This document shows, in pieces, positions 10,059-54,673 of a stretch of 64,000 bases of DNA. The translations under genes were made by a program, and so were the position numbers. The DNA comes from Chiloscyllium plagiosum (taxonomy: Eukaryota), in contig NC_057715.1 in NCBI RefSeq assembly GCF_004010195.1, forward strand, positions 12,784,409 to 12,848,408, read 5' to 3'. Within the stretch, counting starts at the first letter, position 1; the number at the start of each line of letters is the position of its first letter. The notes under the pieces were generated by a model. That model was not told the DNA's origin. It made no database searches and saw nothing but the letters and a program-made list of their open reading frames with translations.

Positions 10059-10276
10059 CATATTTTGGAGATACCGGTGTTGGACTGGGGTGGACAAAGT
10101 TAAAAATCACACAACACCATGTTATAGTCCAACAGGTTTAACTGGAAGCACTAGTTTTTGGAGCTCCTCCTTTTGTGTCCTCCATAACCACCTGATGAAG
10201 GATCGTCGCTCCAAAAGCTAGTGCTTCCGATTAAACCTGTTGGACTGTAATCTGGTGTTGTGTGATTTTTTTAACT
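10059..10276. mobile_element. Palindromic PLE-derived element with hammerhead-like core
   Basis: Inverted arms aaagttaaaaatcacacaacacca.. / ..tggtgttgtgtgatttttttaacttt; cacCTGATGAaggatcgtcgctccAAAAGCTAgtg at 10189-10223; flanking 12-bp direct repeat ttgagataaggt. Confidence 0.8.
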
Positions 10277-11149
10277 TTGAGATAAGGTGTTAACCCTGCA
10301 ATTGGCAGGTTGACAGTTTGTAGTACATACCTAAAAGGGGCATGCAAGTGATAATGTGTAGAGTGCGGGTTTACGTACTCTGCAATCATCCGCTTACCTC
10401 AAGAAATGATTTATTCACCACTACATTCTGTTCATTTAATCTGCCAACACAAAATCCTATCAGGAGTGGCTGACTTTCTGTCCCAAATGCTCTTCTGCAC
10501 GTTCTTTTCTAATTGCATACCAAAGGATCACCTGAGGAACAGGAACCATTAGGATGAGAAGGAGATGGCATAGATACTTCTTACTGTAAACGTCACAGAT
10601 ACCAACTATTCCTTCAAATTGCACCATACTCCATCTCATGTTCACTTTTACAATTAGGCTGAGAGTATCAAAAGGAAGAAAGTGTAGACTAAAATTATTT
10701 CATCCTTTCATGGACTTGTAGAGAAGTAAATAATTGACTGTGTAACACATTTTTAAATGAAAAAGGCTGAAATATTGCACCTCATTTCAGGTAATAGATT
10801 AGTTTTGTGGCATAACATTCAACCTATGCTCATATTTACTGCGAAACTCCAACCATAACCTACAGCAAGCCAATTTTTGTTCACTTTTCCACAAAAATCT
10901 GCTTCAAAACTCAATAAATCTTGTTCTCACCATATAACATGATTCACAATACTCCTTCAATGATTTTCCCAGTGGTGTCATTGGTATAAACCACAACCAC
11001 ATCTGAGTTAGTTGGAGAGGGTGTCATGTCAATCATTCAAATACCGACAATAAATGTTCAAAAATATCGGATTAAAAGCAAAGTTAGTTAAAATACCTTT
11101 CTCTGATCAGATGGAATACTAAATGAACAAATATTGTCTTGACTGAGTC

Positions 11150-11680
11150 ACAGAAACATAGAAAATAGGAGCAGGAGTAGGCCATTCAGCTCTTCGAGCT
11201 TGCTCCACTGTTCATTATGATCATGGCTAATAAATTAACTCAATCACCTGTTCCTGCCTTTCCCATGATATCCCTTAATCCTTTTAGCCCCCAGTGTTAA
11301 ACCTAACTAATTTTTGAAATCATGCAATGTTTTGGAATCAATTGCTTTCTCTGGTAGTGAGTTCCATAGGTTCACCATTCTCTGGGTGAAGAAATTTCTC
11401 CTCATCTCAGCCCTAATTGGTTTACCCCTTATCCTTAGATTGTGAACCCTGGTTGTGGACTACCCTGTCATCAGGAACATCCTTCCTGAATCTATCCTGT
11501 CTAGTCCTGTTAGAATTTTATGGATTTCTGAGATTCCTAACCAACTGAACCTCTCAATAGTCAGTACTGTCATCCCAGGCTGGTAAGCTTGCGCCGCACC
11601 TCCTCCATAGTAAGAAAATCCTTCCTCAGATAAGGAGAGCAAACTGCACACAATATTCCAAGTTCTCTTGCTATGAAGGC
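11150..11680 (-). mobile_element. CR1 3' fragment
   Basis: agaaacatagaaaataggagcaggagtaggccattcagc tail; KILTGLDRIDSGRMF on the minus strand. Confidence 0.85.
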
Positions 11681-11759
11681 CATCATTTATCACATCATTC
11701 TGACTGAAATGCAAAATGTGATAGATTTTAATTGTTAACTTGTACTTGTGGCTATTTCT

Positions 11760-12700
11760 ACCAAGCGATCTGTTGTCATGGCGTGCCATGCTCACCTGTC
11801 TTGATTCATTGTCTCATATTCACAGTAACTCAACTGTAGCTGCTCTGTGATGTCAGTCATTCCACTACCCTGAGCTCGACTCCTCTCTCTGCAGTCTTTC
11901 ACTTTACTCTGAGATCTCCGTAGACTTTCAACTCTGATCGAATGGCCAACATACTGAAGTTTTTTTTTGATGTTGCTTTTTAAGAGTTTATCTTCCTTCA
12001 ATTTCAAGTATCTCTGAATTGTCTATCATCTGTATGTGATTATTAACATGTATCTTAGCATCATCCATATTTAAAAAGTCTATTTTTTCTTTCTAAGATC
12101 TTTATTGTCCTGCTCTCTGAGGGCTGAAGGAAAGTGGATCGAATATAATGAGTAATGAGCTTTTTCCAGGTTACAGGTTTTCTTGAGTTTTCTTGTCATT
12201 GACACATTCTTCATCTTCACAAAACTTCCAGATATCTCTACTTGTGACTTCCATACTGCATCTGCCATTTGGTATTCTTATTTTTCTTAAGTAAACACAC
12301 ATCTACTTATGAGAACTGCAGATGATGGAGATCAGAGTCGAGAGTGTGTTGCTGGAAAAGCACAGCAGGTCAGGCAGCATCCAAGGAGCAGGAGAATTGA
12401 TGTTTCGGGCATAAGCCCTTCATCAGGAATGATAATGAGCTTTTTCCAGGTTACAGATTTTCTTGAGTTTTCTTCATTCCTGATGAAGGGATTATGCCTG
12501 AAGAGTCTGTTCTCCTGCTCCTCGGATGCTTCCTGACCTGCTGTGCTTTTCCAGCCACCACATATCGACACACATCCTTTTATTCCAATTTAACACCAGC
12601 CATGTCAATCTTCACTAGTTTCCTCTCAAGTATTTGTTCCATTACCATTGTTTGTAAGTTCAGTGTTCATTTCTTGATGAACCATATTTTAAACTCCTAG
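11760..12700 (-). mobile_element. Ancient RTE-like LINE remnant, interrupted by a PLE palindrome
   Basis: Minus ORF 11792-12007 LLKSNIKKKLQYVGHSIR...MTDITEQLQLSY...QDR resembles the RTE-type ORF C-terminus (KRKLQYFGH...W.D.I...AQDR). Confidence 0.65.
12311..12567. mobile_element. Palindromic PLE-derived element; loop contains a copy of flanking DNA
   Basis: Left arm ..gctggaaaagcacagcaggtcaggcagcatcc..tttcgggcataagcccttcatcaggaatga is the reverse complement of right arm tcattcctgatgaaggg..cctgctgtgcttttccagc. Confidence 0.9.
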
Positions 12701-13679: not shown

Positions 13680-13980
13680 GCAAGACTTAGAACCCAGGTT
13701 CAATTTCACCCTCAGGCAAATTGCATATTCTCCCCATTTCTGCGTGAGTTTGATCCGGATGCTCCAGTTTCGTCCTGCAGTCCAAAAATGTGCAGGTTAG
13801 GTGGATTGGCCATGCTAAATTGCCCATAGTGTCCAGGGACTTTTAGATGGATTAGCCATGGAAAATGCAATGGTACAGAGATAGAGTAGGGAGTTTAGTC
13901 TGGTTGGGATGCTGTTCAGAGGGTCAGTTTGGACTTGTTGGGCCAAATAGCCTGTTTCTACACTGTAGAGATTTTATTGT
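13680..13980 (+). mobile_element. HE1-type V-SINE (decayed)
   Basis: caggttcaatttc B-box, V-domain, ggattggccatgctaaattgccc, CR1-like tail. Confidence 0.85.
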
Positions 13981-14347
13981 TTCTCTGAAAATGTTCAAGG
14001 TCAAGTTGATAAGTGGTAAATAACTTTTGCATCACACAAGTGCTGGTAATGGCCATCTCCAACAAGAAGGAATCTAACCATAGCTCCTTGACACTTGATG
14101 ACATTACCAACATGGAATCTCATACTATCTTGAGGGCTATCATTGACAAGAAACTGAACTGAATATATAAATATTGTGGTTACAAGAACAGGTCAAAGCT
14201 TGTAAGCCCGCTATGGGTAACTCAACTCCTGACTCTCCAAAGCCTGTCCACCATCTACATGGTACAAGTCAGGTGTATTCATTCCCATTTGCCTGGATGA
14301 GTACAGCTCCAACATTACTCGGAAATGTTGACACCATTCAGGACAAA

Positions 14348-14752
14348 GGTGAGGACTGCAAATGCAGGAAATCAGAGTCTAGATTAGAGTGGTGCTGGAA
14401 AAGCACAGCAGATCAGGTAGCATCCGAGGAGCAGGGAAATCGACGTTTTGGGCAAAATTCCTTCATCAGAAATGAAGGCAGGAAGCCTCCAGGGTGGAGA
14501 GATAAATGGAAGGGGGGTGGGGCTGGGGAGAAGGTAGCAAAGAGTACAATAGGTGGATGGGGGTGGGGATGAAGGTAACAGGTCAGAGAGGAGAATGGAG
14601 CAGATAGATGGGAAGGAAGCTTGGCAGGTAGGACAGGTCATGAGGATGGTGCTGAGTTGGAAGTTTGGAAGTGGGGTAAGATAGGAAAGGGAAATGAGGA
14701 AACTGGTGAAGTCCACATTGATGTCCTGGGGTTGAAGTCTTCCGAGGCAGAA
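14348..14752 (-). mobile_element. Penelope-like element 3' end: GIY-YIG C-terminus, pyrimidine-rich UTR and decayed hammerhead
   Basis: Minus strand at about 14752-14695 reads FCLGRLQPQDINVDFTSFLIS, matching the PLE endonuclease C-terminus (..LGTL.P.G.N.); continues into the same terminal arm as the palindromic elements. Confidence 0.8.
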
Positions 14753-15423
14753 GTAAAGCAGTCTGCTTGATTGGCACCACGTTCACAAATATTCACACTC
14801 TCCACCATTGATGCTCAGTAGCAGTAACAATATCCACTGCAGAAATTCACAAAGGCTCCTTAGACAGCACCTTCCAAATCCATGACGACTTCCGTCTGGA
14901 GGGACAAGTGCAGAAGGTGCTTTGAAACACCATCACCTGCAAGTTCCCCTCCAAGCTGCTCACCATCCTGACCCCCCTCACTGTCGCTGATTAAGATCCT
15001 GGAATTCCATCCCTAAGCGCATTGTGGGCCTACCTACACCAAATGTAGCAATTGAAGGAGGCAGCTCAATGTAGCAATTGAAGGAGGCAGCTCAACACTA
15101 CCTTCTCACGTAGCGACAGGCTGGCCCAGCCAGTGATACCAATTTCGCATGAATAATGTTTTTTTTTTAAATCTATGCCAGTAGACAATAGAGGAAGTAG
15201 TAGAACACAGGTCTTTGTGGGAGATAGGCAAAGTAGCAGCGACAGACTGATTGTGAGGTACTGGAGGGGAGGTGATGGGCAGTTACGCAGTTGGAGCAGA
15301 GGGGTCATTGATGTTCTTCACACAGTGCTGTGCATTCCTCCATATGGCTGTATCCTGTGTGGCAAACCCGAACCAGCCCGACATGTTCTGGTATCGTGGC
15401 CTTCACCTATCAGCCCCATCCTG

Positions 15424-15554
15424 GGAGAAAGTGAGGACTGCAGATGCTGGAGATCAGAGCCAAAAGGTGTGGCGCTGGAAAAGCACAGCAGGTCAGGCAG
15501 CATCTGAGGAGCAGGAGAGTCGATGTTTCGAGCAGAAGCTCTTCATCAGCCCTT
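15424..15554 (-). mobile_element. PLE terminal arm with hammerhead-like core
   Basis: Minus strand CTGATGAaGAGCttctGCTCGAAAcatc; flanked by tatcagccccatcctg (15408-15423) and tatcagccctatcctg (15555-15570). Confidence 0.85.
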
Positions 15555-19114: not shown

Positions 19115-19372
19115 GGTGGCACGGTGGCACAGTGGTTAGCAATGATGCCTCACAGCGCCAGAGACCCGGGTTCAATTCCCGCCTCAGGCGACTGACTGTG
19201 TGGAGTTTGCACATTCTCCCCGTGTCTGCATGGATTTCCTCCGGGTGCTCTGGTTTCCTCCCACAGTCCAAACAAAAATGTGCAGGTTAGGTGAATTGGC
19301 CATGCTAAATTGCCTGTAGTATTAGGTAAGGGGTAAATGTAGGGGTGGGTTGCGCTTCGGCGGATCGGTGTG
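19115..19372 (+). mobile_element. HE1-type V-SINE, 3'-truncated, abutting a PLE arm remnant (about 19377-19445)
   Basis: ggcacggtggcacagtggttagc..gggttcaattccc..V-domain, followed by ctgtgcttttccagcaccactctaatc. Confidence 0.9.
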
Positions 19373-20479
19373 AACTACTGTGCTTTTCCAGCACCACTCT
19401 AATCAAGAATCTGGTTTCCAGCATCTGCAGTCATTGTTTTTACCGAAGAAACACCAACACCCCAACCTCAGCCACAGTAACCTGCTTACATTTACATTAT
19501 AAGGTAAAACTGGAAAACTTTACTGAACCATCCAATGGATTGTATGATTATTGCAGAACCAGCCAGTGAACTTACCCTATTAACCATGAATCAACTAGTA
19601 GAATTTGCTGTTTATTGGAGAACTGGTCAAATGATTTACCAGATAATGTTAAATAGGTGTTTGGAGTCACTACAAGTTTTTTTTCTCTTCCCAACTGAGG
19701 ATTAAGACAAAAATACTGTCTTGGAAACAGATACTAAAAGTGACAGCCACGAAGATCTTCTCAAGTCACATATCAGTGAGATGGGCAGATACAAATCCCT
19801 AGATTTGCCAAATTGGAGTCGGTTCTTAAACATTCCGATCTGAATTTCATCAGCACATGAAAGTATACTCCATGGAATTTAAAAATGATATTGTAGAAGT
19901 TTTGTGGAGCTTACTGAAGATTTTATAATTGAGCTTTGGGATTTCTCCCATTTCTATAATTGCTGATGTTTAATCTCAGCTTTCAAGCATTTTATCAAAT
20001 ATGAACAAAGATCTGTTACAACTACTTAATGAATCATTTCCCCAAACATGTACCTGTCAGCTTTTCCAGCATCTGCAGGATCTGTTCCAATTGTTTCCCT
20101 GGTGATAATGGAGCTCTCCTGAAACATTTTATACAAAAGGTATGAAAAAGTAAGAAAAATGTAATAAGAAATGTTATTGTCCATTGCACTTGAGAACCAA
20201 ACCAATCAGGTTTCAGATCTCTTGCTTGTGTCACTCTACCATTTCTGGGTTTCACCCAAGGTGATTTGTACAGTTTAAAAATCAGAATGATTGAATGGAG
20301 CTTAATCCCAGTGAGAGTGCAGAGTTGGAAATTATGTGAACTCAGTTCTGAGGTTAAAATCACAGAGTTGCAGACTTGAGCATTGCTGCTAATATTAGCC
20401 CCAATGAGAGAAATTCAACTTGATTGCACCGCATGGGTGGACATTTGAAGATTATTACTGGTACCTTAGAAATTCTAAC

Positions 20480-25061: not shown

Positions 25062-25712
25062 TGTCACAAAGCTACTCCCTTTTTTTCTAAAAGCTGTTCC
25101 TTGGCTCAAGGAGACTTTGCCCTTGATTTCTTTCGGAGGGGCAATAAACCAGGCAGGACTCCAATTAGTCTGGTTTGGTACAGAGATGAAAAGGATTTTG
25201 AGAGGCCTTTTGTTTATATGCAAACAGATGAGACTTCAGGCCAAAGTGGTCATGCTTTAGAAGTGACCTGTATAAAGAGACGGGAGTGGTCAGCTGTCTA
25301 GCTGAGCTGAGCTGAGTAGCTTTTAGTTCAGTCTTGAACTGGGAACTTTAACTGGGAGCTATGTGGAAACTCTCTTTCTTTTCTGCCTTTCAACTTCAAC
25401 CTGTAAGCATGTGTTCCATTTATACTGGGTGTTAAAAGGAATTTGCTTATTGGGACTGTTGTATGTATTCGGAACAGCATAATTAAATCAAGCTGGTTAG
25501 GTTGAGTTCTGTATGCGTTCTTTATTCTGTTCTTTGTGTTTCATTGTGTAATTTTGTGAATAAATGTTTTTGTCTGTTTCAAAATCTAGTAGTTAACCTA
25601 GCTATTTTACTCTGGGTAATTTTCCCTGTACACTTACCGAAACAAATTGCAAACTTAGGTCTAGGGCTGTCTGCTTAAGAATGTTTTGAGTGGTCTGGCC
25701 TGGTCCATAACA
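25062..25712 (+). repeat. 5' LTR (651 bp)
   Basis: tgtcacaaagcta...ccataaca; aataaa at about 25559; direct repeat of 30768-31413. Confidence 0.96.
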
Positions 25713-27180: not shown

Positions 27181-27470
27181 AAAAGGTAAAGTTTATTCAC
27201 ATAGGCCAGGAGTAATAGGTAAAGAGGTTACAATATTAAGGGACACAGGATCCTCTCAGTCTGTAATGCTGAAAGATGAGGAGATATGTACTCCTGAGAG
27301 TCTATTGCCAGAGAAGGTACTGGTAACAGGAATTCATGCTGAGTAAAAAAGTGCTCAATTATGTAAAGTGAGGCTAGAGAGTCCAGAGAGGAATGGAGAA
27401 TTTGTGGTAGGGTTATGGACAACTCTCATCTCCAGGAATACAATTTGTCCTTGCATATGATATAACCGAT
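27181..27470 (+). pseudogene. Aspartic protease domain of pol
   Basis: ILRDTGSSQSVML, catalytic DTG at 27242-27250. Confidence 0.88.
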
Positions 27471-27879
27471 TTGCTGGTAGGCGTGCTGCCTACTCTAGTT
27501 GAAATTCCAATGGAGACGCAGGCAACTGAAGACCTGGAGAATGTTTATCCAGGAATTTTCCCTGAATGTGTGATCACAAGATCACAGAGGCACAAGCAGA
27601 AGCAGGAGAGATCAAAAGGCACAGATAAGAAAGCAGACATAGAGTTAGTCGAAACATTCTTTGATCAAATGTGTGTGACAGAACAGGAACAACTAGGTAA
27701 ACATGCAAGTATCTTTTGCTCTGCTAAGCTGATTGAATTACAGCAGAAAGATGAGGAGTTAAACCAGTTTTTTCAAAAGGCATTTACAAAGAAAGAAAGT
27801 GAATGCATTCCTGTGTGTTATTACTTAACAAATAGGTGTCTCAATGAGGAAATGGAGACCGTCACACATTCAAGCAGAT

Positions 27880-29075
27880 GAGAAATGGGCAGAAATTCAT
27901 CAAATGATTTTGCCAGTACAGTAAAGAAAGGAGGTGCTGCGAGTGGTGCATGTGCTACCACTTAGAGGTCATTTAGGGCTGAGGAAAACACAAGCTAAAA
28001 TACAAAGACATTTTTACTGGCTTGGACCACACAAGGATGTAATTGAATTTTGCCAGACGTGTCATACATGTCAGCTAATCGGAAAACCACAGGCAGTAAT
28101 AAAACATGCACCTTTAATATCTATTCCAGCATTTGAGGAACCTTTCACGAGAATCTTGATTGATTGTGTAGGTCCCCTACCTCAAACAAAAAGTGGGAAT
28201 AAGCATTTATTAACAATAATGGATGTGTCGACTAGATTTCCAGAGGCAATCCCATTACGCAACATTACAGCTGAAAGGGTTGTAGAAGAAATACTTAATT
28301 TTTTTACGAGATACAGACTTCCAGTAGAGATTCAGTCAGATCAAGGATCAAACTTCATATCCAAACTATTGAAGGAAGTTATAGACAACTTGGGAATAAA
28401 GCAATTGAAATCTTCTATGTACCATTCGGAATCGCAGGGAGTGCTAAAGAGATGGCATCAAACACTGAAGACCATGTTGAAGGCTTATGGTCAGGATTAT
28501 CCAGAAGCAATTGAAATCTTCTATGTATCATTCGGAATCGCAGGGAGTGCTAAAGAGATGGCATCAAACACTGAAGACCATGTTGAGGGCTTATGGTCAG
28601 GATTATCCAGATGATTGGGATAAGGGAATTCCGTTTGTACTTTATGCGATCAGAGATGCACCGAATGAATTGACCAAATTCAGTCTGTTTGAATTAATTT
28701 TTGGGCATGAAGTAAGGGAACCATTAAAATTAATTAAGGAGAAATTAATAAGTCAGAATTCAGAGACCACCCATTTGGACCCCAAATTTTAGGGAACAAT
28801 TAAATAGAGCTGGAGAGTCGGCTAGACAGCATTTAAACATATCACAGCATACAATGAAATAAGAAGCAAATCAGAAATCACAAATTCACAATTTTGCAAT
28901 TGGAGATAAGGTATTGGTGTTATTTCCAGTCACAGGTGAGCCTTTAAAAGCAAGGTTTAGTGGACCGTATCAAATTGAGAGGAAATTGAGTCAGGTGAAC
29001 AACTTGATAAGGACTCCAGACAGTAAGAAATCTCACAGAGTGTGTCATGTGACTATGCTCAAAAGGTATTTTGAC
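27880..29075 (+). pseudogene. Integrase (HHCC, DDE, GPY/F) located upstream of RT
   Basis: H..GHLG..KT..FYW..CHTCQ; ILIDCVGPLP; IQSDQGSNF; ESQGVLKRWH (E to K); RFSGPYQI..HVTMLKRY. Confidence 0.95.
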
Positions 29076-29308
29076 AGGGACGGAAAGCAAGAGGAGAAGG
29101 TGTTAATGATTACAGCACAGAAGGAAGAACCAAGTTCAGAGGATTCTGAATTGGACATTCCTCAAATCAAATTGGACAATGAGAGAGTTGTCAAAAATTG
29201 GGATAAATTATTGTGTTACCATCACAAGAAAATCGAAATGACCTGAAAGAGTTATTACTATCACATGGGGAGATATGTGGAAATAAACTGTGAATTACTA
29301 ACCTAATT

Positions 29309-30590
29309 GTGCATGATGTCGATATAGGAGATGCTGTTCTGATTAAACAACATCCTTATAGGAATAACCCTCTAAAGTTGGCACAGGTTCAGAAGGAAAT
29401 AGAGCGCATGCTCCAAGATGGCATAATCAAAGTGAGTTACAGTGACTGGAGCTCACCCATAGTCATGGTGCCAAAGTCAGATGGTACCCAACAGTTATAT
29501 GTGGACTATCGCAAAGTCAATGCCATTACAAAGACTGATGCATATCCAATTCCATGGTTGGAGGACTGTGTTGAAAAGGTGGGATAAGCAGCTTACATTT
29601 CTAAGTTGGACTTGCTTAGAGGCTACTGGCCAGTACCTCTGTCAGAGAGAGCGAAGGCAATTTTCGCTTTCGTAACGCCAAATGGACTATATCGGTTCAA
29701 AGTCATGCCATTTGGTATGCAAAACGCTCGAGCCACATTTCAGAGACTGACTAATAAGGTCACTGCCGGATTACCCAATTGTGCAGTGTACATTGATGAC
29801 GTAGTGATTTTTAGTCACTCATGGAAGGAACATTTACAGCATTTATCAGACTTGTGCGATTGATTTTGGAAGGCAGGCTTGGTGGTAAACATAGCTAAAA
29901 GTGAACTTGCCAAAGCCCAAGTCACCTTCCTGGGCCATGTTATTGGATCTGGACAAATGACCCCACGGGATGCAAAAGCGAAAAGTAATTGGGAATTTTC
30001 CTACACCGTTGACGAAAAAAGCAGTACTATGGTTCCTGGGGTTGAGTGGATTTTACTGAAAGTTTGTGCCGAATTTCAGCAGTGTGGCTGCTCCACTCAC
30101 CGAATTGTTAAAAAAGGACAATAAGTTTCAGTGGACAGTGGACTGTCAAAAGGCATTTGACAGCCTTAACACTGTGTTAACCATTGCCCCAGTATTAGCC
30201 ACACTGGATTACACAAAGCCTTTCAAGGTGCCTGTCGATGTCAGTGATGTGGGTGTCAGTGCGGTGCTCAGTGAGGATGATGAGGGACTAGAAAGACCCA
30301 TTGGGTATTTTTCGAGGAAGTTGAACATTCATCAACAGAAATATTCAATGGTGGAGAAAGAGACTTTAAGCTTGGCGTTAGTATTACAATATTTTAGTGT
30401 TTGTATTACCAGCAATGCATCTGAGACAATCGTATACACTGATTACAACCCAATGACATTTGTGGAAAAATTTAAGGACAAAATGCCAGACTGTTTAGAT
30501 GGAGTTTGTTGTTGCAGCCATTCAATTTGACAATTGTGCAGGTGGCAGGTCACGACAATGTAATTGCCGATGTGTTATCGAGACTTGAAT
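29309..30590 (+). pseudogene. Reverse transcriptase and RNase H
   Basis: IKQHPYR, WSSPIVMVPK, VDYRKVN, DLLRGYW, MPFGMQNA, YIDDVVI; RH VDVSDVGVSAVL, YFSRKL, EKETL, YTDYNP, DNVIADVLSRL. Confidence 0.95.
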
Positions 30591-30767: not shown

Positions 30768-31413
30768 TGTCACAAAGCTAGTCCCTTTTTTTAAAAAAGC
30801 TGTTCCTTGGCTCAAAGAGGCTTTGTCCTAGATCTTTTCAGAGGGGCAATAAACCGTGCCAGACTCCAATCAGTCTCATTTGGTACAGAGATGAAAAGGA
30901 TTTTGAGAGGCCTTTTGTTTAGGCCAAACAGATGAGACTTCAGGCCAAAATGGTCATGCTTTAAAAGTGACCTGTAGAAAGAGAGGGGAGTGGTTAACTC
31001 TCTAGCTAGCTGAGCTGAGCTGTTTTTAGTTCAGTGTTGAACTAGGAAGTTCAACAGGAGCTGTGTGGAACCTCTCTCTCTTTTCTGCCTTCAACTTCAA
31101 CCTGTAAGCATGTGTTCCATTTATACTGGTTTCTAAAGGGAGTTTGCTTATTGGGACTGTTGTGTATATTCTGAACAGCATAATTAAGTCTAGCTGGGTA
31201 GGTTGAGTTCAGTAGGGGTTCTTTATTCTGTTCTTGGTGTTTCATTGTGTAATTTTGTGAATAAATCTTTTGTCTATTTTAAAATCAAGTAGTCAACCTA
31301 GCTATCCTACTCCAAATAATTTTCACTGTACACTTACCGAAACAAATTGCAAAAGTTAGGTCTAGGGTTGCCTGCTTAAGAATGTTTTGAGTGGTCTGAC
31401 CTACTCCATAACA
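30768..31413 (+). repeat. 3' LTR (646 bp) preceded by PPT ggaagagg (30760-30767)
   Basis: tgtcacaaagcta...ccataaca, roughly 85-90% similar to the 5' LTR by eye. Confidence 0.96.
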
Positions 31414-34099: not shown

Positions 34100-36850
34100 T
34101 TGAATATAACTGACTAACTAGTGGGAAAAATATAGAAGAACAAATTTATAAGGAAATTACCGAGGTGTGTAAAAATGTAGATTAGATATAAATTAGTAAC
34201 TTTAATGTTTCTAATAAAAACATTGAAAGTAGTTGTGTAAAGGACACAGAGAATGCCTACAGGGTGTTCACAGAAATTTCTGCAGCCATATGTTTGCAGT
34301 CCGAAAAGAAAAGAAACATTGTTAGAAACAAAAACAGAAATTGTTGGAAACTTTCAGCAGGTCTGCCAGCATCTGTGGACAGAAATCAGAGTCAACATTT
34401 CAGGTCAAGTGACTCTTCCTCAGAACTCCTCGGGAGCACTGTTAGACTTGGTTCTTAGGATCAAAGTGGGTCAAATGGATCAAGTATCATAGGGGAAATT
34501 TAAGTAGTGACTACTTTTACATTATAACATTTAGTTTGGCCATGGGAAAGGATGAAGAACAATGCAAGGTAAGAATAGTTAACTTGAGAAAAACCAACTT
34601 AAATGTGGTAAGAATGGACCTTGGCCAAAAAAACTGGAATCAAATATTGACAAACAAAGCAATAATTGAACAATGGGTTGCCTTTAACAGGAGATAGTTT
34701 GAGCAAAGTAAAGGTATATTCCCCATGATGGGGAAAGGTGGGTCAAACATATCAAGAGGTCCATTAGTAGTGATTAAAGATTAAGAAAAAAAGTATGCTT
34801 CAAACAGGTGACAGGTGGATAATACAACTAAGAGCCAGACTGAATATGGAAGGTTCAGTGGCATGGTGAGAAAACAAATAAGAGAAATAAAGTACAAAAA
34901 AAGAATGACAGCTAACGTAAAAGGGAGCCCAATGTCCCCTGTAGGCATATAAATAATTTTTAAAAGGGTCAAAAGAAGAGCAGGGCCAATTAGGGAGCAA
35001 ACAGGGATTTACACCTGGGGTCACAGGCTATGGTTGAAACATTAAATAAATACTTTGAATTTATCTTTACCCAGAAAGAATATGTTGTAAAGGTTGTGGC
35101 AAAAATAGAGATAATGCAGACTCTTGAAAGGCTTAAGAGTGAAAAGAAGGAGCAATAAAGTGGGCTGTCTTTATTTAAAGTTGATAAGACACCAGAACAA
35201 GATGACCATGAGACCATGTGACATGTGAGCAGGATTAGGCCATTTGACCCATTGAGTCTGTTCCACCATTTTGATCATGGCTGATATGTTTCGCATCCCC
35301 ATCCTCCTGCCTATCCCCATAACCCTTGATCCCCTTACCAATCAAGAACCTATCTATTCCTGACTTAATATTTTCAATGACTTGTCTCCACACCCCTCTA
35401 CAGCAATGAATTCCACAGATTCACCACCTTCTGCCTGAAAATATTCCTCTTTGTCTCATTTCTAAAATCTCATCCCTTCAACCTGAGGCTGTGCCCTCGA
35501 GTCCTAGTCTCTCCTATTAGTGGAAGCATCCTTTCCATGTCCACTTTATCCAGGCCCCTTAGTATTTCATAAGTTTCAATCAGATCCCCTCTTACTCCAT
35601 CTAAACTGCATCAAGTACAGACCTGGAGTCCTTAACTACTCTTATCCATCTGAACTCCATTGAGGACAGACCCAGATTCTTCAACTGCTCTTCATATAAA
35701 AAGACCTTCATCCTTGGGATAATTCTTGTAAACCTCCTCTGGACTCCCTCCAACACCAGTACATCCTTCTGTGCACATGGAGCCTAAAACATGGTCATAA
35801 TGTTCCAAATGTGGCCCGACCAGAGCCTTATACAGCCTTGACAGCACATTTCTGTTCTTGAATTCTCACCCTCTTTAAATGAATGATAGCATTGCATTTG
35901 CCTTTCCAACTGCCAACTGAACCTGCATGTTAACCTTAGAATCCTGAGATTCCAAGTCCCTTTGGGCTTCAGATTTCTGAAGCCTTTTCCCATTTAGAAA
36001 GTAGTCTATGCCTCAACCAAAATGCATTGTCTCACACTTTCCCACATTGTATTCCATCTGCCACTTCTTTGCCTATTCTCCTAGCCTGCCAAGTGATTCT
36101 GCAGCCTCCCTACTTCCTCAACACTACCCGTCCCTCCACCTGCATTTGTGAGCTGCAAACTTAGCAACAATGCCCTTAGTTCGTTCATCCTGATCTTTAA
36201 TATATATCACGAGTAGTTGTGCTCACAACACAGACTCCTGCAGGATTCCACTAGTCACCAGCTGCCATCCTGAAAATACCCTCTTCATCCCTCCTCCTTG
36301 CCTCCTGCCAGTCAGCCAATCCTCTATCCATGTCATTGCCCCTAACACTATGGCTCATCTTTAGCAGCGTCCTGTGTTCTGGAAATCCAAATAGATCACA
36401 TCCACTGACTCTCCTTTGTCTAACTTGCGCATTACCTCTTCAAACATATTAGCCATGATAAAGTGAGGACTGCAGATGCTGGAGGTCAGATCAGAGTCTG
36501 GTTCAGGAAAAGGACAGCAGGCCAAGCAGTATCCAAGGAGCAGGAGAATCAATGTTTCGGGCATAAGTTCTTCATAAGGAATAGGGTTTGTGGCCCATAA
36601 GCCTCATTCCTGATTAAAGGCTTATGCCCAAAACTTTAATTCTCTTGCTCTTTGGATACTGCCTGACCTGCTGTGCTTTTCTAGCACCACACTCTCTTGC
36701 AGATCAGTCAGGCATGACCTCCATTGGAAGGCACCCAAGGGTACCGAAGGTAGTGAGATTGAGGAGGCCCTGACCATAGTTTTCCACCTTCCTTAGACTG
36801 CATCTGGTGCTGGAGAATTGAAGACATTATACCCTGGTTCCAAAAATGGT
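34100..36850. mobile_element. Nested CR1 cluster: old plus-strand CR1 (about 34100-35207, resuming 36728-36850) split by a minus-strand CR1 (about 35208-36727), each containing a PLE insert (about 34325-34428 and 36462-36695)
   Basis: DKTPEQD at about 35183-35205 continues as HPRV..EIEEAL at about 36733-36775; minus CR1 tail accatgagaccatg at 35206; PLE arms as elsewhere. Confidence 0.8.
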
Positions 36851-40810: not shown

Positions 40811-41920
40811 TACCAAAATATGCAACTAGTGCTATAAAAGGGAAGCTTAGTTCTATGCAGATTCTCTTCACCAGTCCCTTTATGAATGCCTAACGGATGG
40901 AGTTCTTCTGAATTGTCCATTGAAGTTTGGACAAAAGAATATTGTATGCAGCATGTAGTCCTCTGTTTGATTGTGATCAGAAAAATTAGGCCAACTTTTC
41001 AGCTGCTGGCAAATTCCCACCCAGTCAGGGACCTGCTTTGTCACACTAAAAACGCAGAAAAAAGGAAATTGGCCTGAAATGTTGATTCAGTTTCTCTCTC
41101 TACAGATGCAGCCCGACCTACTGAATGTTTTCCAGCATTTTCTGTTGTTACTTCAGAGCTTCAGTTTCTGCAATATTTTGCTTTTATGTTAGAAAATGTA
41201 TCAATTATGGAATATGCATGAAGGCATCCAGAAACATTTCAGATTTCCATAACACTAAGAAACAACGAGAGGAAAAGCTCACCATATTCATATCACCTAT
41301 TGCAATTGTTTAGTGCCTACTGTAGAGAAACAGATAAAGCCTCCCCGGAAGAGTCATCTTAAGTGAGTCCTCAATTAATATTGCTGTCAGCACCTTAGAA
41401 TAAATGAATCCTGTATCATCCATAACATTGCGCATACACACTGTTGTTATCTCTAAAGGGTTAATCTATCTGAGACAATGAAACGCCAAAAAATTCCCAT
41501 CACTTTATGTCAATTTATGTTTTGACGAGCTCTGCGTGTCTGTAAAATGTCTGTAATTTATCGCCCACTCACTGACGTTGTCTGATGCTAATATCTCACT
41601 AATTTGCAGGTCATCTGCAGTTTCATTCATCACTTTTTTCTAACAATGCTACTCTGATTCTCTGCTTCACAGATGAGGCGCTTATGGTTTCATATTTAAT
41701 ATGATTGATCACAGGTAATTGCCTCAACGTTACTCACTTCATTGCTCAGAGTGATCATCCTTCAACTCTAATGATTGATTGAAAATAATATTCTGTCAGA
41801 GTGCACCAACTCCCAGCCTGACCATAACCTTTGCGTAGCCCAGATTGATAATCTGACTATAACTGATGTGCAGTCAGTATCTGGCCACAACTGGAATGTT
41901 AACATAGGCTATAAGTTGAT

Positions 41921-42256
41921 TTAAATGGGACGGGAGGCTGGGGAGATGGTAGCAAAGAGTACAATAGGTGAATGGGGGTGGGGATGGAGGTGATAGGTCA
42001 GAGAGAAGGGGGTGGAGTGGAAAGGTGGGAAGGGAGATTGGCAGGTAGGACAGGTCATGAGGNNNNNCGTCTCCCCAGCCCCCACCCCATTTATCTTTCC
42101 ACCCTGGAGGCTTCTTGCCTCTATTCCTGATGAACGGCTTTTGCCTGAAACGTCGATTTTCCTACTTCTCGGATGCTGCCTAACCTGCTGTGCTCTTCTA
42201 GCACCACTCTGATCTAAACTCTGGTTTCCAACATCTGCAGTCCTCACTTTTGCCTG
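41921..42256. mobile_element. Inverted PLE 3' fragments spanning a 5-N gap, with hammerhead core
   Basis: Purine-rich arm matches 14500-14645; plus strand attcCTGATGAacGGCttttGCCtGAAAcGTCgatt at 42123-42158. Confidence 0.85.
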
Positions 42257-44635: not shown

Positions 44636-44775
44636 CAGTTCTGAGGAAGGGTCACCGGACCAAAAGCAATAATTCTGATTTCTCTTCTCAGATCCTGTCA
44701 GACCTGCTGAACTTTTCCAGCAATTTCTGTTTTTGTTTCTGATTTACAGCATACGCAATCCTTTTGTGTTTTTTT
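44636..44775 (+). mobile_element. PLE-derived arm, third family (CTGAGGA-type hammerhead, decayed)
   Basis: cagttCTGAGGAagGGTCaccgGACCaaaag; reverse complement of the 34325-34428 family. Confidence 0.75.
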
Positions 44776-46389: not shown

Positions 46390-48455
46390 ATAGAATATAA
46401 GACATTACAGCACAGTGCAGGCCCTTTGGTCCTTGATGTTGCGCTGACCTGTGAAACCAATCTGAAGACCATCCAACCTACACTATTCCATTATCATCTA
46501 TATGTTTATCCATAGAACATAGAACATAGAACATAGAAGAATACAGCGCAGTACAGGCCCTTCGGCCCTCAATGTTGCGCCAATCCAAGCCCACCTAACC
46601 TACACTAGCCCACTATCCTCCATATGCCTATCCAATGCCCGCTTAAATGCCCATAATGAGGGAGAGTCCACCACTGCTACTGGCAGGGCAGTCCATGAAC
46701 TCACGACTCGCTGAGTAAAGAACATACCCGTACCATCTGTCCTATACCTACCCCCCCCCCCTTAATTTAAAGCTATGCCCACTTGTAATAGCTGANNNGA
46801 ACTCAATTCCTCTACCAATAAAAGCCAGTACGCCATATGCCTTCTTCACCGCACTATTTACCTGGGTGGCAACTTTCAAAGACTTGTGTACATGGACACC
46901 AAGATCCCTCTGCTCATCCACACGACCAAGTATATATCCAATGACCATTTAAATGCCCTTAAAGGTGGCAAGTCTACTACTGTTGCAGGAAGGGAGTTTC
47001 ACATCCTTACTACTCTCTGAGTAAAGAAATTACCTCTGATATCTGTCCTATATCTATCACCCCTCAATTTAAAGCTATGTCCCCTCATGCTAGCCATCAA
47101 CATCTGAGGGAAAAGGCTCCCACTGTCTACCCTAACTAACCCTCTGATCATCTTGTATGTCTCCATTAAGTCACCTCTCAAGCTTCTTCTCTCTAACAAA
47201 AACAGCCTCAAGTCCCTCAGCCTTTCCTCATAAGACCTTCCCTCCATAGCAGGCAACATCCTGGTAAATCTCCACTGTACCCTCTCCAATGCTTCTGCAT
47301 CCTTCCTATAATGCAGCGACCAGAACTGTACACAATACTCCAAGTGCAGCCACACTAGATTTTTGTACAGCTGCAACATGACCTCATGGCTCTGAAACTA
47401 AATCCCTCGACCAATAAAAGCGAACACACCACACACCTTTTTAATAACCCTATCAACTTGGGAGGCAACTTTCAGGGATCCATGCACATGGACACCGAAA
47501 TCCTGCTGCTTATCCAAACTAGAAGAATCTTGCCATTAGCCCAGTACTCTGTGTTCCTGTTGCTCCTTCCAAAGTGAATCACCTCACACTTTTCCACATT
47601 TAACTCCATTTGCCACCTCTCAGCCCAGCTCTGCAGCTTATTTATGTTCCTCTGTAACCTGCAACATTCTTCTGCAATGTCCACACCTCCACTGACCCTA
47701 GTGTCATTCCAAATTTACTAACTCATCTTTCTACACACTCATCCAGGCTATTTATAAAAATGACAGACAGCAGTGGCCCCAAAACAGATCCTTGTGGTAC
47801 ACCACTAGTAACTGAACTTCAGGATGGACATTTCCCATCAACCACCACCCTCTGTCTTTTTACAGCTAGCCAATTTCTGATCCAAACTGCTAAATCACTC
47901 TCACTCCCATGCCTCTGTATTTTGTTCAATAGCCTGCTATGGGGAACCTTATCAAATGTTTTACTGAAATCCATACACATCACATCAACCACTTTACCCT
48001 CCTGCACCTGTTTGGTCACCTTCTCAAATAACTCAATAAGGTTTGTGAGGCACAACCTACCCTTCACAAAATCGTGTTGACTGTCCCTAATCAAATTATT
48101 CCCTTTTAGATAATTATAATTCCTATCTGTTATAATCCTGTCCAACACTTTACCCACAACTGAAGTAAGACTCACTGGTCTATAATTACTAGAGTTATCT
48201 CTACTCCCCTTTTTGAACAAGGGGACAACATTTACTGTTCTCCAGTCTTCTGGCACTATTCCTGTAGACAATGACAACATAAAGATCAAAGCCAAAGGCT
48301 CTGCAATCTCCTCCCTAGCTTCCCAGAGAATCCTAGGATAAATCCCATCCATCCCAGGGGATTTACCTATTTTCACACTTTCCAGAATTGCTAACAACTC
48401 TTCCTTATGAACCTCAATCCCATCTAGCCTGATAGTCTGTATCTCAGTATTCTCG
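46390..48455 (-). mobile_element. HER1/CR1 LINE 3' 2 kb (RT largely readable) with a second CR1 3' end nested at 46513-46934
   Basis: KSPGMDGIYPRILWEAREEIAEPL..NYRPVSLTSVVGK..QHDFVKGRLCLTNL..MDFSKTFDKVPH; LEYCVQFWS; nested copy has a (tagaaca)n tail and tatcca on both sides. Confidence 0.95.
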
Positions 48456-49299
48456 CAGCTAGAGTGTGAATACTGAGTTACAGTTTATTAGACTAGACAG
48501 CATTATCACGGTGGTGACAGCTAGAGAAGTCACAGTTGCTACAATAGCTTTGACTTAACTCATAAATCTAACTTGGACTAATTCTTTCAAAAATAAGAGT
48601 GATGCTAAAAGAAGAAAGCTGGATAAAAATAAAGTCACATCCAGGAAGCAGCATGCAAACAAGGGTGTGAAAAGTATACTCCAAACCCAAAAAGGGAACC
48701 CAAGAGTCCTGTGAGTTCCCGCTGCAACAAGGAGGACATTTCCAGTTGAAATGTTAGAGATTAAGGTATGGTTCACATACACCGGGTCAGGACTGAGAGA
48801 GGACTCCCGGCAGGGGACACAGCAGATTCCCACAGGCAGCCTTGCTACAAAATCTTGGGAGCATTTGCCTTGTGTATGACGCATCCAGGCAAATCCCCTG
48901 CAAGCTGCAGGAGTTTTGTGGTCTTGGGAACGCTATTCCTGCATCCCTCCCTGAAATCAAACAAAGTCTATTGCTTTATGCAGGGACCACTCAATTCTCA
49001 ATGTCAACCTAAAAGTAACTTATGAGTTACTACCTTAGCTACATGGTGTTAAAACTAAGAACAAACATGGGACAACTGGTTAGTTCCTCCCAGGAACAGT
49101 TCTTACATTCTGATGATGTTAGTTAACTCTTTCCGAAATTATACATCATTACACAACATTAACTTGTCATATCATTTGTCTCTTTGTCTCTTTGTCTCCT
49201 ACTCACAGCTTGTATTTTCACTTGGCTATTACACATTAGCAAACTGAGATACGTTACATTTTGTCTGTTTGTCTACATTCATTATTGTAGATTGTAAAT

Positions 49300-50041: not shown

Positions 50042-50047
<6 letters not shown>

Positions 50048-50072
<25 letters not shown>
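50048..50072. repeat. (TC)n microsatellite in a TC/TG-rich tract
   Basis: About 12 TC units. Confidence 0.9.
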
Positions 50073-51332
50073 GTCCAATTTCAGTATGTGTGCCTGTGTC
50101 TGTCTGCCTAATGGCAGAGAATTGAGGGGAACACTGTCTCAGAGGGAAGGGAAGCAGCAGTGATTATTTCCACAGAGCCCTGTCTCTCAATGAATGGCTC
50201 TTTGAATACATGCAATTAGCGGATGAAATGAAGTTTTGACCACAATTCTCCTTTCGCACAGTGAAGGAAAGGCTGAGTGGTTGCTGTTTATATTGTGCCA
50301 GGGCTTCTTATTCATAGACTCCTTTGACGAGCTGGGTGGTGTTCCCACTGGCAATGGGAAGAAGCTCTTTCACATCCAGCTTATTACATGGCTAATTAAC
50401 CAGGAGCGTTGGGCTCTTGTTGGAAACTGTCAACAAGGAAGCAAGCATAGCTAACTGGCACAGCTTGTCACTTGCATAATGCATGTAAACAGAGATAGTC
50501 TGTCACTGAATTTGATTAATAGACAGGAAAATCATAAACTTGAGAAAACAAAACTTGATAGCTCTTGCAAATGTTTAATATATTTTATATTCCAGAAATG
50601 CTGTTCTAGATAGTCCTCCTATTTACTTTACTTTAATTGCAATCATTTTTCAAGTGTGCCAGCAGGAAATACCCTGATCTGTTTCATTTGTATTATCAAA
50701 CAGGGAGAAACAAATAAAATCCTATACCTCACTGATGGAACCAGCCTGTGTAATATGGCAAAACAAAAAGGCAAAACATAAGTCTGCAGGTACAGGAAAT
50801 AAAAACCAGCCTCCCCTTTAATGTGTTGGAAATACTCAGCTGGTCAGGCAGTATCTGTGGAGAGACACAAAATTACACAGCCTGGGTTTGAGGCACCAAC
50901 AGTGGCAAAGGCTGAGCCAATTTGAGGGTCAGATGAGGACCAGAACCATTGGTTTGGACACATACTTACACTGAAAACAGCAAGTTGAATTGCTCAAGAA
51001 TCGCCTTTGAAGCAGCTTCTGTTGGTGGGTCCACAGACCATCTCATAAAAAGACAGGGAACCATTGTTTTAAGAATTTGGCCTGATGACCTGTAACTTAT
51101 CCATTTTTTACATGATTTGATTAGAGCTGGTAGTACCCGACTCAAAGCCTGCTCAGGAAGGCCTTTTCTGATGATTCAACTTCACCTCAATTCCAAGAAA
51201 TGGCTGACAGCAGCAGGAATGAACATTCAGGGCTGAGTGAAGACATTTGAAGTATTGAATTTTATTTATCAGGTGTATGCATTCCCCCTTTAGCATGACT
51301 TGTTGGACCTCTTAAATGAATATAATTTATTA

Positions 51333-51830: not shown

Positions 51831-53817
51831 ACCCTAGTGAATGTTTTGCCACTTGTCTGCCCATTCTGGTAACCCTATCTATGTCCTATTGCTGTCCATT
51901 GGTCTCATTCTCACTGTTTACTCAACTCCAAGTTTAGTATTATGGACAAGTTTTTGAAATGTTATTCTGCATTGTAATATTTACATTTTATACACATACA
52001 TTTTATATATATATCTGTAAAAATGTGTGTGTATCAAAGAAGTCCTAGCACAAGCCCTTAGAGAACATCACAGCCTGAAAAATGATCATTTATCATAACT
52101 TGCTGTTTTGAGTCCTTAAGCAAACGTTAGCATGGTTAAAGTTAGTTTTAAAAAATGTATCTGATCTTATAAAACCCTGCTTGCAAGAAAATCTGTATAG
52201 TAAGATGATTACAAAATAACTGACACTAACCTTCTCACACATAGGACAGTTAGGATGCCAAAACCAATGTCTGGACAGTTCAGGGCACTTTGTGGTACTT
52301 TGCTATTAAAGTATTAAGGATTGTTTTGGACCGTTGTGTGTTGAAGAACTATGTCCTAAAGGAAAGACTATCCCTCCATCCACAGATATGATTGCACCAG
52401 AAATCAATGAATGCAAGGTCCTAGCATGAATGTTGCTGGAACTATGCTTCATCAATCATGGAAGGAAGCCTTGCCTGCAGTGGCCAGAATAGCTACAGAG
52501 AAGCTGGTGGCTGATTTGGTCATCGAGAGTGACAAAATCCTTCATCCTGCCCAGGAAATCAGATAAAATAACAAGTGTGATGGGAATTGGAATATGTATT
52601 ATGCTTATGAGATATGAAAAAAGATAATAATTCTTTAGAATAGCTATACTTCCTCTTTAAATTTTAAGCTGAACCTATCCAAACCAAAACATGGTCTGAT
52701 GCCAGTTGACCACAATTTATTAAAAGTCCCAACCATTTGTCGCAAGAGCAAGTTCAGGCAGCAACCATCCGGAATCCATCTCCCACACAGTAAGCATTGT
52801 GGTCATAATTTATACAAAGGAACAGTAGAACCTATGGGAGAAATCTTACCAGAATCAGTGTTTTATTTTGTCAAGTTTTATGAAGAATTTCTCTCCATGA
52901 TGCCGAGTGAGTTTTCTCATGTTAGAGTCCGAACCCTGTGCGCCATTCCTTTATGACATGCTATTCTTCATATTCTTCCACGTCTTAGGAGGAAGGACCC
53001 ACCACCATTGGACTTTGGGGATTCCTGATGCAGAGCCATAGTGTTGTGCATCCTGTCAGTACAGAGCTGCTGTGAATGGTTCAATAAACTTTCCCTGGCC
53101 ATGGCAGACCAGGAGAGATTGGTGCCCTACTTTGCATGGAAAATCATGGCTGATTTGGACATTGAGAGTGACAAAATCTTTCATCCTGCCCAGAAAATCA
53201 GGCAAAAGAATAGATGAGATGGGAATTGGAATGAGTGTCATGCCCACAAGTTGTGAAGAAAGATCATACAGGTCCCCATAGATGGGGCAGTTTAGTGGAG
53301 GGCTATCTGAAGTTGCTACCTGGGTCACTGTATTCTCCATCATCTGGAGAAATGCCCAGCAATGTGGACAGAAGTTCAATGATCTTCTCTATTCTGATAA
53401 AGCCATCACCTTCTCACACTCATTCTAATGCTGCTGCACCCAGCTCCTACCAGCTCTCATGGTCTACCACTCACAAGATTGAGTGCCACACCTTCCCAGG
53501 CAACTGACTGCAGGGATAACAGAATCAATGGCAAGACAGCAGCATTGCTATTTTCTGCCAGAAACATTTATAACTTCGTCAGCTGTAGTACAGCCATTAC
53601 CTCTTGTTGCGTAACTGTGTTTTCTCACTAGTCAAAGCTAGTGGACAGAGACAAGGTCTGCATGATGTAGCCAAATTGCTGTGCTGGTGCTGTAACTACC
53701 ATTAAGTGGCTTCTGGATGTGTCTGATTACATTCCTGCTGTAACCAGACAGGTTGTTGTCACTATTGTGTACCCACCTCCAGGACATGGGTTGGAGAGTC
53801 AGTCTGCTGCTTTCTAA

Positions 53818-54112
53818 TGCACAGTGGCTCAGTGGTTAGCACTGTTGCCTCAAGCACAGAGACCTGAGTTCAATTCCAGCCTTGTGTGACTGTCTGTGTG
53901 TAGTTTGCGCATTCTCCCTGTGTCTGCATGGGTTTCTATTGGGTATTCCAGTTTCCTCTTACAGTTCATAGATGTGCAAGTTAGGTAGATTGGCCAAGGT
54001 AAAGGTGGACTTATGGGAATAGGGGTGCATGGGTGGGATCGTGTTCGGAGGGTTGGTGCAGACTTGATGGGCCAAATGGCCTCTTTCTGCACTGTAGGGA
54101 TCTATGATTCTG
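53818..54112 (+). mobile_element. HE1-type V-SINE
   Basis: gtggctcagtggttagc, gagttcaattcc, V-domain, CR1-like tail. Confidence 0.88.
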
Positions 54113-54503
54113 ACTCTCACACCTCTCACATGGGCTAGAAAAAGTCTGTCCATTTTTAAGTATATCATCTTCATAATTATCCCTGAATACCCTCACAGAT
54201 CGTGAACTACTAATTTTATGTTTGTGGAATGTCACACTTCACTCTAATGATCAATGATTCCACATAGAAGATGTTTTTGTTTAAATTAGTTTGTTTACCT
54301 TTGTTTTAGATTCTATCTTAATCCAACCACAATACAGTAATTCATTTTTCTATCTGAAATTTTCAATTAAAAATAAAGGATATTAGGTACTTTTCAATCT
54401 CCTGGTTTGTTGTGCATGAGTTCTTCAATGCTGTATCTGTAAGCCGAGTTCATTGCTGCTGCATATTAGGGCATGCCTTTGACCTGATGCCAGTCTGAAT
54501 ATA

Positions 54504-54673
54504 GGTGAAAGTGGGTACTGCAGATGCTGGAGATCAGAGTCAAGATTAGAGTGGTGCTGGAAAAACACAGCAGGTCAGGCAGCATCCGAGGAGCAGGAAA
54601 ATCGACGTTTCGGGTAAAAGCCCTTCATCAGGAATGCCTGACCTGCTGTGCTTTTCCAGCACCACTCTAATCT
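54504..54673. mobile_element. Asymmetric palindromic PLE-derived element with well-preserved hammerhead core (minus strand)
   Basis: Minus 54635-54600 attcCTGATGAaGGGcttttaCCCGAAAcGTCgatt; 18-bp direct repeat tgatgccag(t/c)ctgaatat at 54485-54502 and 54674-54691. Confidence 0.9.

Follow-up and report, generated by a model that had tools for sequence, protein, structure and literature searches.

The hammerhead ribozyme motifs dispersed through a 64-kb stretch of the genome of the shark Chiloscyllium plagiosum (NCBI RefSeq assembly GCF_004010195.1, contig NC_057715.1, positions 12,784,409 to 12,848,408; hereafter the window) are almost certainly ribozyme-bearing stubs of Penelope-like elements (PLEs). 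Each stub is the terminal segment of 90-135 bases, ribozyme plus tail, of a protein-coding PLE and has no body of its own. We hypothesize, with a probability of roughly 0.68, that the short copies are run-off cDNAs of the first 90-135 bases of the element mRNA, made from uncleaved RNA. The stubs in the window fall into three families (A, B and C), and signed positions are counted from C3, the initial C of CUGANGA.

The identity of the stubs follows from longer copies elsewhere in the genome. Among the best 40 of 2,647 (A), of 768 (B) and of 1,247 (C) candidates from genome searches, some extend upstream through a pyrimidine-rich pseudo-long terminal repeat (pLTR) into an open reading frame (ORF), and ORF pieces lie upstream of the ribozymes of all three families. 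In each family ribozyme and tail are found downstream of an ORF for a reverse transcriptase (RT) with a GIY-YIG endonuclease (EN). Family A has them immediately in front of the ORF start as well: at 4 of the 19 loci taken at that position (L207, L209, L215 and L222) an undamaged core with its tail passes without a break into the ORF. Because the long copies continue into pLTR and ORF, the stubs are PLE ends. Long copies are often bounded by inverted ribozyme-plus-tail ends, and the elements have, as other PLEs do, a pLTR with a hammerhead, an optional 30-40-bp tail and an adjacent inverted copy. The earlier note on this DNA, made from the letters alone, had recognized the motifs as minimal type-I hammerheads of PLEs, and this was borne out: they are abundant and form the terminal repeats of RT plus GIY-YIG PLEs.

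The proteins point the same way. The natural 492-aa frame of the L188 ORF matches Pfam RVT_1 at E=7e-7, above the cut-off, and GIY-YIG at E=1e-3, below its cut-off; the family B endonuclease matches GIY-YIG at E=0.0035, and the top atlas match is GIY-YIG/HTH_animal/RVT at 0.97. The B and C proteins are known only as endonuclease or RT fragments. RT and EN are joined by a CX2-5CxxC linker in the natural copies L188 (A), L199 (B) and L201 (C), and such a linker marks Neptune/Nematis PLEs (PMC8557442). Judged by sequence, families A-C are probably endonuclease-bearing (EN+) PLEs of the Neptune/Nematis type, with RT, C-terminal GIY-YIG, linker and hammerhead pLTR. A PDB sequence search gave no match. 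For A-C we tentatively assume the label Neptune, from the linker and from the vertebrate range.

The window is vertebrate-like and repeat-rich, with a GC content of 40% and a CpG observed/expected ratio of 0.24. All eight motifs reported earlier were found in place, with C3 at 10192 (+), 12426 (-), 15549 (-), 32318 (-), 34423 (-), 42127 (+), 44641 (+) and 54631 (-). The figure of about eight cores in 64 kb was nonetheless incomplete: damaged cores at 12480 (+), 14469 (-), 36578 (-), 36610 (+) and about 32325 (+) had been overlooked, and the window holds 19 arms of families A, B and C that total 2,224 bases, ten of them in five head-to-head pairs. As the earlier note had suggested, we searched with a motif descriptor (CTGANGA, a stem II of at least 3 bp and GAAA) and found a clear excess, with 7 matches in the window compared to a mean of 0.39 and a maximum of 5 in 100 block-wise dinucleotide shuffles. 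Allowing AAAA raised this to 11 matches, compared to 0.87 (maximum 5) in the shuffles, and 571 kb of unbiased genome sequence gave 69 strict matches versus 4.65 (20 shuffles). Two of the seven strict matches in the window, 19695 (+) and 58044 (+), lie outside every family and look like chance matches; 34423 (-) is missed by the strict descriptor owing to a stem mismatch. The best-preserved cores are 54631 and 32318, which keep core boxes, the stem II base pair and palindrome. The full core that had been ascribed to 42123 and 54600 is indeed present at 54631, but at 42127 C replaces G10.1 and T replaces C11.1, which abolishes the conserved 10.1-11.1 pair.

We examined covariation in the ungapped unbiased copies (93 of 104 in A, 39 of 44 in B and 8 of 19 in C, the rest dropped for indels or more than nine differences). 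Pairs were tallied by structural position; MAFFT alignments across families mis-registered families B and D (D is a fourth family, described below). The covarying stem II reported earlier holds between families, where GGGC/GCCC (A), GGAGC/GCTCC (B) and GGGTC/GACCC (C) differ in sequence and length and the pairing stays; it does not hold within them, since no pair covaries within any family. The GAGC/GCTC stem of 15549, previously taken as covariation, is a private double change, with A-T at that position in 1 of 93 family A copies (p=0.15). The palindrome likewise changes between families from ACGT to AGCT (C-G flips to G-C), and stem I changes in register, its first pair being C-G in A and B, T-A in C and A-T in D. 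The pairing between families is real structural conservation, resting on a few ancestral events, and the pattern within a family is one of neutral CpG decay only, without compensation.

The remaining structural features described earlier were confirmed. Helix III is replaced by a palindrome, which reads ACGT in A (with C-G kept in 54/93, the remainder mostly CpG decay) and AGCT in B (G-C in 36/39), and stem I is short, with 2-4 complementary pairs that differ per family and a low predicted pairing probability (0.00-0.11). The CUGANGA and GAAA boxes are intact in 60/93 A, 23/39 B and 3/8 C copies. The nucleotide N17 of the NUH cut triplet is C in A, A in B and U in C. The first stem II pair (10.1-11.1) is G-C or G-T in 84/93 A, 33/39 B, 8/8 C and 35/39 D copies, and one extra nucleotide follows A9, which together with a G10.1-C11.1 stem II characterizes the published minimal hammerhead (min-HHR). 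About 45% of the ungapped A and B copies (43/93 and 17/39) still have all of these features. The decay of CpGs is also evident: in family A, 19% of CpG positions have changed, compared to 4-6% at other core and stem positions, and both G12 and the palindrome sit within CpGs. As for the claim of at least three families, A, B and C do occur in the window, but A and C have a tail in common and are relatives, not independent families.

To estimate abundance we used a tail-anchored search of 120 unbiased 10-kb stretches (1,155,427 non-N bases, all from large contigs). It found 287 arms, 286 of which could be assigned, that is 248 per Mb (bootstrap 211-287); arms that reach C3 and bear a core amount to 156 per Mb (129-184), and 100 of the 120 stretches hold at least one arm. 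Scaled to the 3.56-Gb assembly, we estimate several hundred thousand core-bearing arms, around half a million. For comparison, reported min-HHR counts are about 4,000 in coelacanth and 9,000 in Xenopus (PMC4209133).

The 3' ends form two clusters, at about +84 to +98 and +118 to +131, some 35-40 nt apart, which we call short and long. An adjacent inverted arm is present for 139 of the 269 scorable arms, with junctions that differ copy by copy. In the 51 pairs for which both arms could be scored, 48 combine a long with a short arm, 2 are short+short and 1 is long+long, where 25.5 mixed pairs are expected were the arms independent (p=1e-11); all five pairs in the window are long+short. Single arms are long or short in ratios of 33:35 (A), 15:16 (B) and 8:23 (C). 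Target-site duplications (TSDs) of at least 9 nt flank 13 of 50 single copies, compared to 3% of shuffled flank pairs, and two copies in the window have TSDs of 16 and 18 nt. A tail at one end only has been described qualitatively for PLEs (PMC8557442). We put at about even odds that the long+short rule reflects twin priming of both target strands from two sites.

At the 5' side, 269 arms could be scored (17 were dropped at N gaps or edges): 55 extend beyond -20, 141 pile up between -20 and +7 and the other 73 begin deeper in the arm. A start no more than 2 nt from the predicted cut is seen in 7/165 arms of A, 0/58 of B and 2/46 of C, versus local backgrounds of 5.0, 0.8 and 3.4. The genomic junctions of these 269 arms show no excess at the cut site, with 9 starts against about 9 expected, so cleaved RNA left no footprint there. 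With a larger reference panel the pile-up in family A persists, with 94/165 copies at -30 to +7, 32 of these single arms. The long copies carry promoter-like sequences upstream of this pile-up, namely TTTATC at -35 to -37 in A, TATAAA at -32 to -34 in C, a TATA-like box at -38 to -40 in B and TATAAA at -48 in D, and TCA at -4 in A and C resembles the initiator consensus.

The more distant TATA box of family D separates a start site from a ribozyme edge. We predicted 5' ends at about -18 before the copies were fetched, and sampled 39 of the 40 top-identity matches, the query's own locus being excluded. Of these, 28 extend beyond -30 and 11 are short, with 5' ends at -29, -18 (four copies), -17, -12 (two copies), -10, -9 and -2, so five of the 11 short copies lie at -17/-18. 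The 5' ends in D differ from those in A (p=5e-5).

From these ends and pairs we infer a cycle in which an upstream copy's pLTR would give the TATA box for a downstream copy. Transcription would start about 30 nt after the TATA-like box, that is 4-8 nt before the core in A/C and 18 nt before it in D, and the 5' end of the mRNA would then be the ribozyme, beginning with a 4-nt stem I strand. The protein would start reverse transcription internally, from two sites separated by about 35-40 nt. Where it uses the pair of sites nearest the mRNA 5' end, the product would be a 90-135-base cDNA running off the RNA end, and where it uses the 3' copy, ordinary long insertions would result. One complex may prime two target strands from the two sites, with both cDNAs or only one being kept. 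A stub has no TATA box and so would be unable to transcribe itself and would decay; ribozyme activity would be relevant in the parent element, where it would need a dimer or protein help. A tandem promoter, TATA-less, has been described for Penelope (PMC2377424). A broader and more tentative idea is that the stubs are a footprint of the whole PLE cycle. The hammerhead would be the capped mRNA 5' end (about TATA+30), a protein dimer would prime both target strands at two sites of a single uncleaved RNA, with long+short palindromes as the result, and the ribozyme would act as a 5'-end switch (decapping or translation control) and not as a unit-length processor for insertion.

Several observations weigh against the run-off reading. 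The family A pile-up is broad (-8 to +6), wider than a sharp start site would give, and family B lacks the shift expected from a TATA box at -40 (median -4; B vs A p=0.66). At least three family B copies at "-3" resemble, by eye, long copies of a subfamily absent from the references, an exclusion made after the fact. An upstream flank is common to 0 of 54 copies, but such an unsampled B subfamily means that this test misses diverged subfamilies. In family D there are 11 short copies only, the sample is top-identity and not random, and 9 of the 11 are inverted junctions whose ends are uncertain by a few nt. The excess of an extra G derived from a cap is not significant, with 11/19 cases versus 0.42 expected (p=0.13); the G that precedes the start of one A subfamily in 5/5 copies was a post hoc observation, in which the two arms of a pair are counted separately. 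The D. virilis Penelope has a TATA-less internal promoter (PMC2377424), so a TATA layout is not general. The RNA reads described below show no site with many molecule starts or ends on either strand, in a polyA library that would miss circles. Finally, the long+short pairs also fit fold-back copying with endonuclease resolution; single arms with a short end only favour independent use of the proximal site.

The run-off reading has to be set against three other explanations. The strongest, which we still consider unlikely, is that the stubs are 5'-truncated PLE insertions primed at the transcript 3' end, with the RT stalling or switching template at a structure at the ribozyme 5' edge, which could be stem I, a hairpin nearby, or the ribozyme itself when dimerised or bound by protein. 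Families A, B and C pile up alike at the edge of the ribozyme, with no difference between B and A, which is what such a stall would give; D and some subfamilies of A have short hairpins immediately before the core, and -19 is the end point of a few copies of A. Family D, however, has the same ribozyme geometry, and only 1 of its 11 short copies lies near -4 where five lie at -17/-18. The upstream hairpin spans about -19 to -5 in A and -18 to -4 in D, yet the peaks are at opposite ends of it, and stem I is predicted to be barely formed. As a further source of the ends we considered a spliced leader, the core being preceded directly by a 3' splice site as it is in D. virilis, and rejected it since single stubs have unrelated flanks and no shared exon; a bare start at a splice-like point is indistinguishable from a transcription start site.

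It is far less probable that the stubs are independent non-autonomous elements, retrozyme- or SINE-like (SINE, short interspersed element), that are transcribed, cut themselves as dimers, form circles and spread from master copies of their own. The earlier note had leaned this way, calling them retrozyme-like derivatives, a reading that is not supported here. The very high copy number, defined ends and TSDs would suit such elements, non-LTR (long terminal repeat) retrozymes have their origin in PLE pLTRs and are present in a cartilaginous fish (bioRxiv 10.64898/2026.07.22.740005), and one unit-length head-to-tail pair exists (L123, 113 nt apart). Against this, no arrays of at least three units were seen among 180 core arms, and none in the window; a neighbour on the same strand lies less than 1 kb away in 19 cases among these 180 arms, and in 11 of the 19 the two belong to different families. 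The stubs lack a private body, their sequence continuing into pLTR or ORF in long copies, their inverted junctions vary copy by copy, and there are neither 5' ends in excess of background at the cut site, as a cleaved monomer would leave, nor compensatory changes within families. That the motifs are chance matches or non-ribozyme hairpins is scarcely credible. An Rfam scan of the window gave no hammerhead model at E<=5, folding z-scores are unremarkable (-0.2 to -1.1), and minimum free energy (MFE) predictions of monomers and cofolds form neither the active hammerhead nor the active dimer, but MFE folding is uninformative with stems this short. The excess over shuffles in both the window and the 571 kb argues against chance, as does the retention of core boxes, bulged nucleotide, G10.1-C11.1 and palindrome across families with differing stems, at a position that matches published PLE ribozymes.

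RNA reads were taken from about 2% of a polyA single-cell run (X19), where 2,059 reads fall on L215:1050-2000, with both strands about equal over ribozyme and tail. Of these reads 94% continue into unlike sequence. At -4 there are 331 loose ends, which match the DNA pile-up and are confounded by subfamily differences. The pattern fits passive transcription of stubs inside host RNAs.

This kind of element has already been published: min-HHRs in PLE pLTRs, including solo and opposite-strand copies, were described in 2014 (PMC4209133). The shark motifs share with them a type-I core with an extra nucleotide between 9 and 10.1, G10.1-C11.1, a palindromic 15.2-16.2 and no helix III, as well as a prevalence of solo copies of truncated PLEs, some opposite-strand pairs and several families per genome. 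They differ in the several hundred thousand copies estimated here and in a shorter stem I (2-4 bp); the excerpts of that paper contain neither a map of the 5' and 3' ends nor an analysis of a shark. The closest mechanistic parallel is PAc, a Poseidon PLE of Anolis (PMC11167929), in which the ribozyme lies just upstream of two adjacent internal RT start sites that define an optional tail, as it probably does here. In vitro, both target strands are extended, unprocessed RNA is the main substrate and the ribozyme is assisted by the protein, which is predicted to be dimeric; uncleaved RNA is used, as is proposed here, and no RNA-seq reads end at the cut site, in line with the lack of an RNA footprint of cleavage here. 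Unlike PAc, whose ORF begins inside stem II, family A has its first ATG about 165 nt downstream of C3, and families A-C carry the Cys linker of Neptune/Nematis. The excerpts of the PAc paper mention neither run-off stubs nor a long+short rule.

Other EN+ PLEs (PMC8557442, PMC3846280) show the same 5' truncation, partial tandems, adjacent inverted 5'-truncated copies, palindromic junctions, TSDs and a 30-40-bp tail that is often at one end only, and a rotifer pLTR has a putative TATA box and initiator. Those papers explain the one-sided tail by resolution through the endonuclease, and the palindromes by an antisense template on which self-priming occurs; unlike them, we count the one-sided tail, in 48/51 stub-sized pairs. 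Non-LTR retrozymes (bioRxiv 10.64898/2026.07.22.740005; PMC7229834) resemble the stubs in being non-coding and in having type-I hammerheads related to PLE pLTRs, and some occur as dispersed monomers, but they are defined by tandem units each with a ribozyme, whereas the elements here are solo or head-to-head PLE ends. Our literature search found no paper on shark PLE hammerheads or on stubs reaching from a start site to a priming site; subscription papers were mostly outside the search and Repbase may hold the families. What is useful here is the scale, the maps of the ends and two quantitative regularities that make the PLE mechanism testable. What the PLE hammerhead does, and how the one-sided tail and the inverted repeats arise, are questions raised by PMC8557442 and PMC11167929, and the several hundred thousand copies are a natural record of PLE insertion products. 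The claims that become testable are that the ribozyme is at the mRNA 5' end and uncut in the template RNA, and that two RT start sites serve two target strands. For annotators, such repeats should be called PLE ends and not retrozymes, SINEs or miRNA hairpins; the head-to-head pair at 12381-12526 matches a microRNA (miRNA) model at E=0.009.

The five head-to-head pairs of the window are as follows. A family B arm at 10066-10172 (-), with a long 3' tail and decayed core, forms the left half of a pair with the family B arm at 10180-10279 (+; C3 10192, G12 changed to A, short 3' end). The family A arm at 12310-12432 (-) has C3 at 12426, an intact GAAA, G16.2 changed to A, a long tail and a start about 6 nt upstream of C3, and its family A partner at 12474-12561 (+; C3 12480) has a damaged core and a short 3' end. 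The spacer between them (12428-12474, +) reproduces 48 nt of flanking DNA at 96% identity (12147-12194, some 150 nt beyond the insertion) and is likely templated filler, as if the RT had briefly copied the target neighbourhood. The family B arm at 32235-32326 (-) has C3 at 32318, intact core boxes, a predicted cut after 32290, a start at -8 and a short 3' end, and is paired with the family B arm at 32327-32447 (+), with decayed core and long tail. Two family A arms with damaged cores, 36460-36582 (-; C3 near 36578, long tail) and 36604-36693 (+; C3 near 36610, short 3' end), form the fourth pair. In the fifth, the family A arm at 54504-54636 (-; C3 54631, the best-preserved core, predicted cut after 54604, start -4/-5, long tail) faces an inverted partial arm at 54635-54676 (+), tail only with a short 3' end, and the pair is flanked by the 18-nt TSD.

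Among the other copies, the longer family A copy at 14346-14758 (-) contains the last endonuclease ORF codons (tblastn 14758-14693), the pLTR, a core at 14469 with G12 changed to A and a long tail. The single family A arm at 15424-15549 (-) begins at C3 15549 without the stem I 5' strand and has the private GAGC/GCTC stem and the 16-nt TSD. The family A copy at 42070-42250 (+) includes about 60 nt of pLTR, C3 at 42127, intact core boxes, no G10.1-C11.1 pair and a long tail; an inverted piece of family A pLTR (41936-42062, -) lies 5' of it across a 5-N gap. Single family C arms are found at 34324-34427 (-; C3 34423, start -4, one stem II mismatch) and 44636-44775 (+; C3 44641, G12 and U16.1 changed, start -4/-5). 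The remainder are tails or tail fragments: a family A tail without ribozyme at 19371-19444 (+), a family C-like fragment without intact core at 41069-41157 (+), an old A/C-type fragment at 50823-50862 (-) and an old family C-like fragment at 57004-57073 (-).

Additional families were encountered in the genome. Family D (L079, L156, L231, L285-L323), the fourth hammerhead family, has a 6-bp stem II and TATAAA at -48, is absent from the window and has proportionally fewer short copies (11 of 39) than A; from a C-terminal motif in L088 we take it to be probably of Poseidon type. At least two further hammerhead-tail families have other stems II (L111 at +4344 and +1542, L155 at -4332, L046), and L101, L106, L111, L145, L107 and L146 hold young family A subfamilies with a CTGAAGA core and near-identical pLTRs. 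In L207 and L215 (about 1375-1550, ORF sense) the family A frame stays open for about 55 codons upstream of the first ATG, across the tail and the entire ribozyme; families B and C, when read by eye, have stops in the matching region. A non-AUG upstream start is possible, or the open frame may be chance. Same-strand stubs lie right behind another stub's tail in L185 (-6961 and -7095; 134 nt) and L123 (+5110 and +5223), and such pairs could seed retrozyme-like tandems.

The window also holds unrelated repeats. A 70-bp tandem repeat at 1-313 (4.6 copies) was tried as a hammerhead and rejected, as it contains CTGAGGA but no GAAA box after the stem. In a broken LTR-retrotransposon remnant at 27411-30530 the integrase (27925-28614) precedes RNase H/RT (30060-30530), both being on one strand, and 28399-28611 holds a 106-bp duplication; a 91% direct repeat (25389-25570 and 31090-31271) bounds the remnant. 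Repeats headed by a tRNA-like segment and resembling SINEs occur at 8909-9259, 13721-13832, 19115-19346, 53815-54016 and 59475-59738, the first with an exact 45-bp duplication at 8909-8998; they may be similar to the shark HE1 SINE. Fragments of long interspersed elements, presumably of CR1/L2 type, lie at 332-740, 46525-48484 and 62807-63696, with an RVT_1 domain at 47822-48484.

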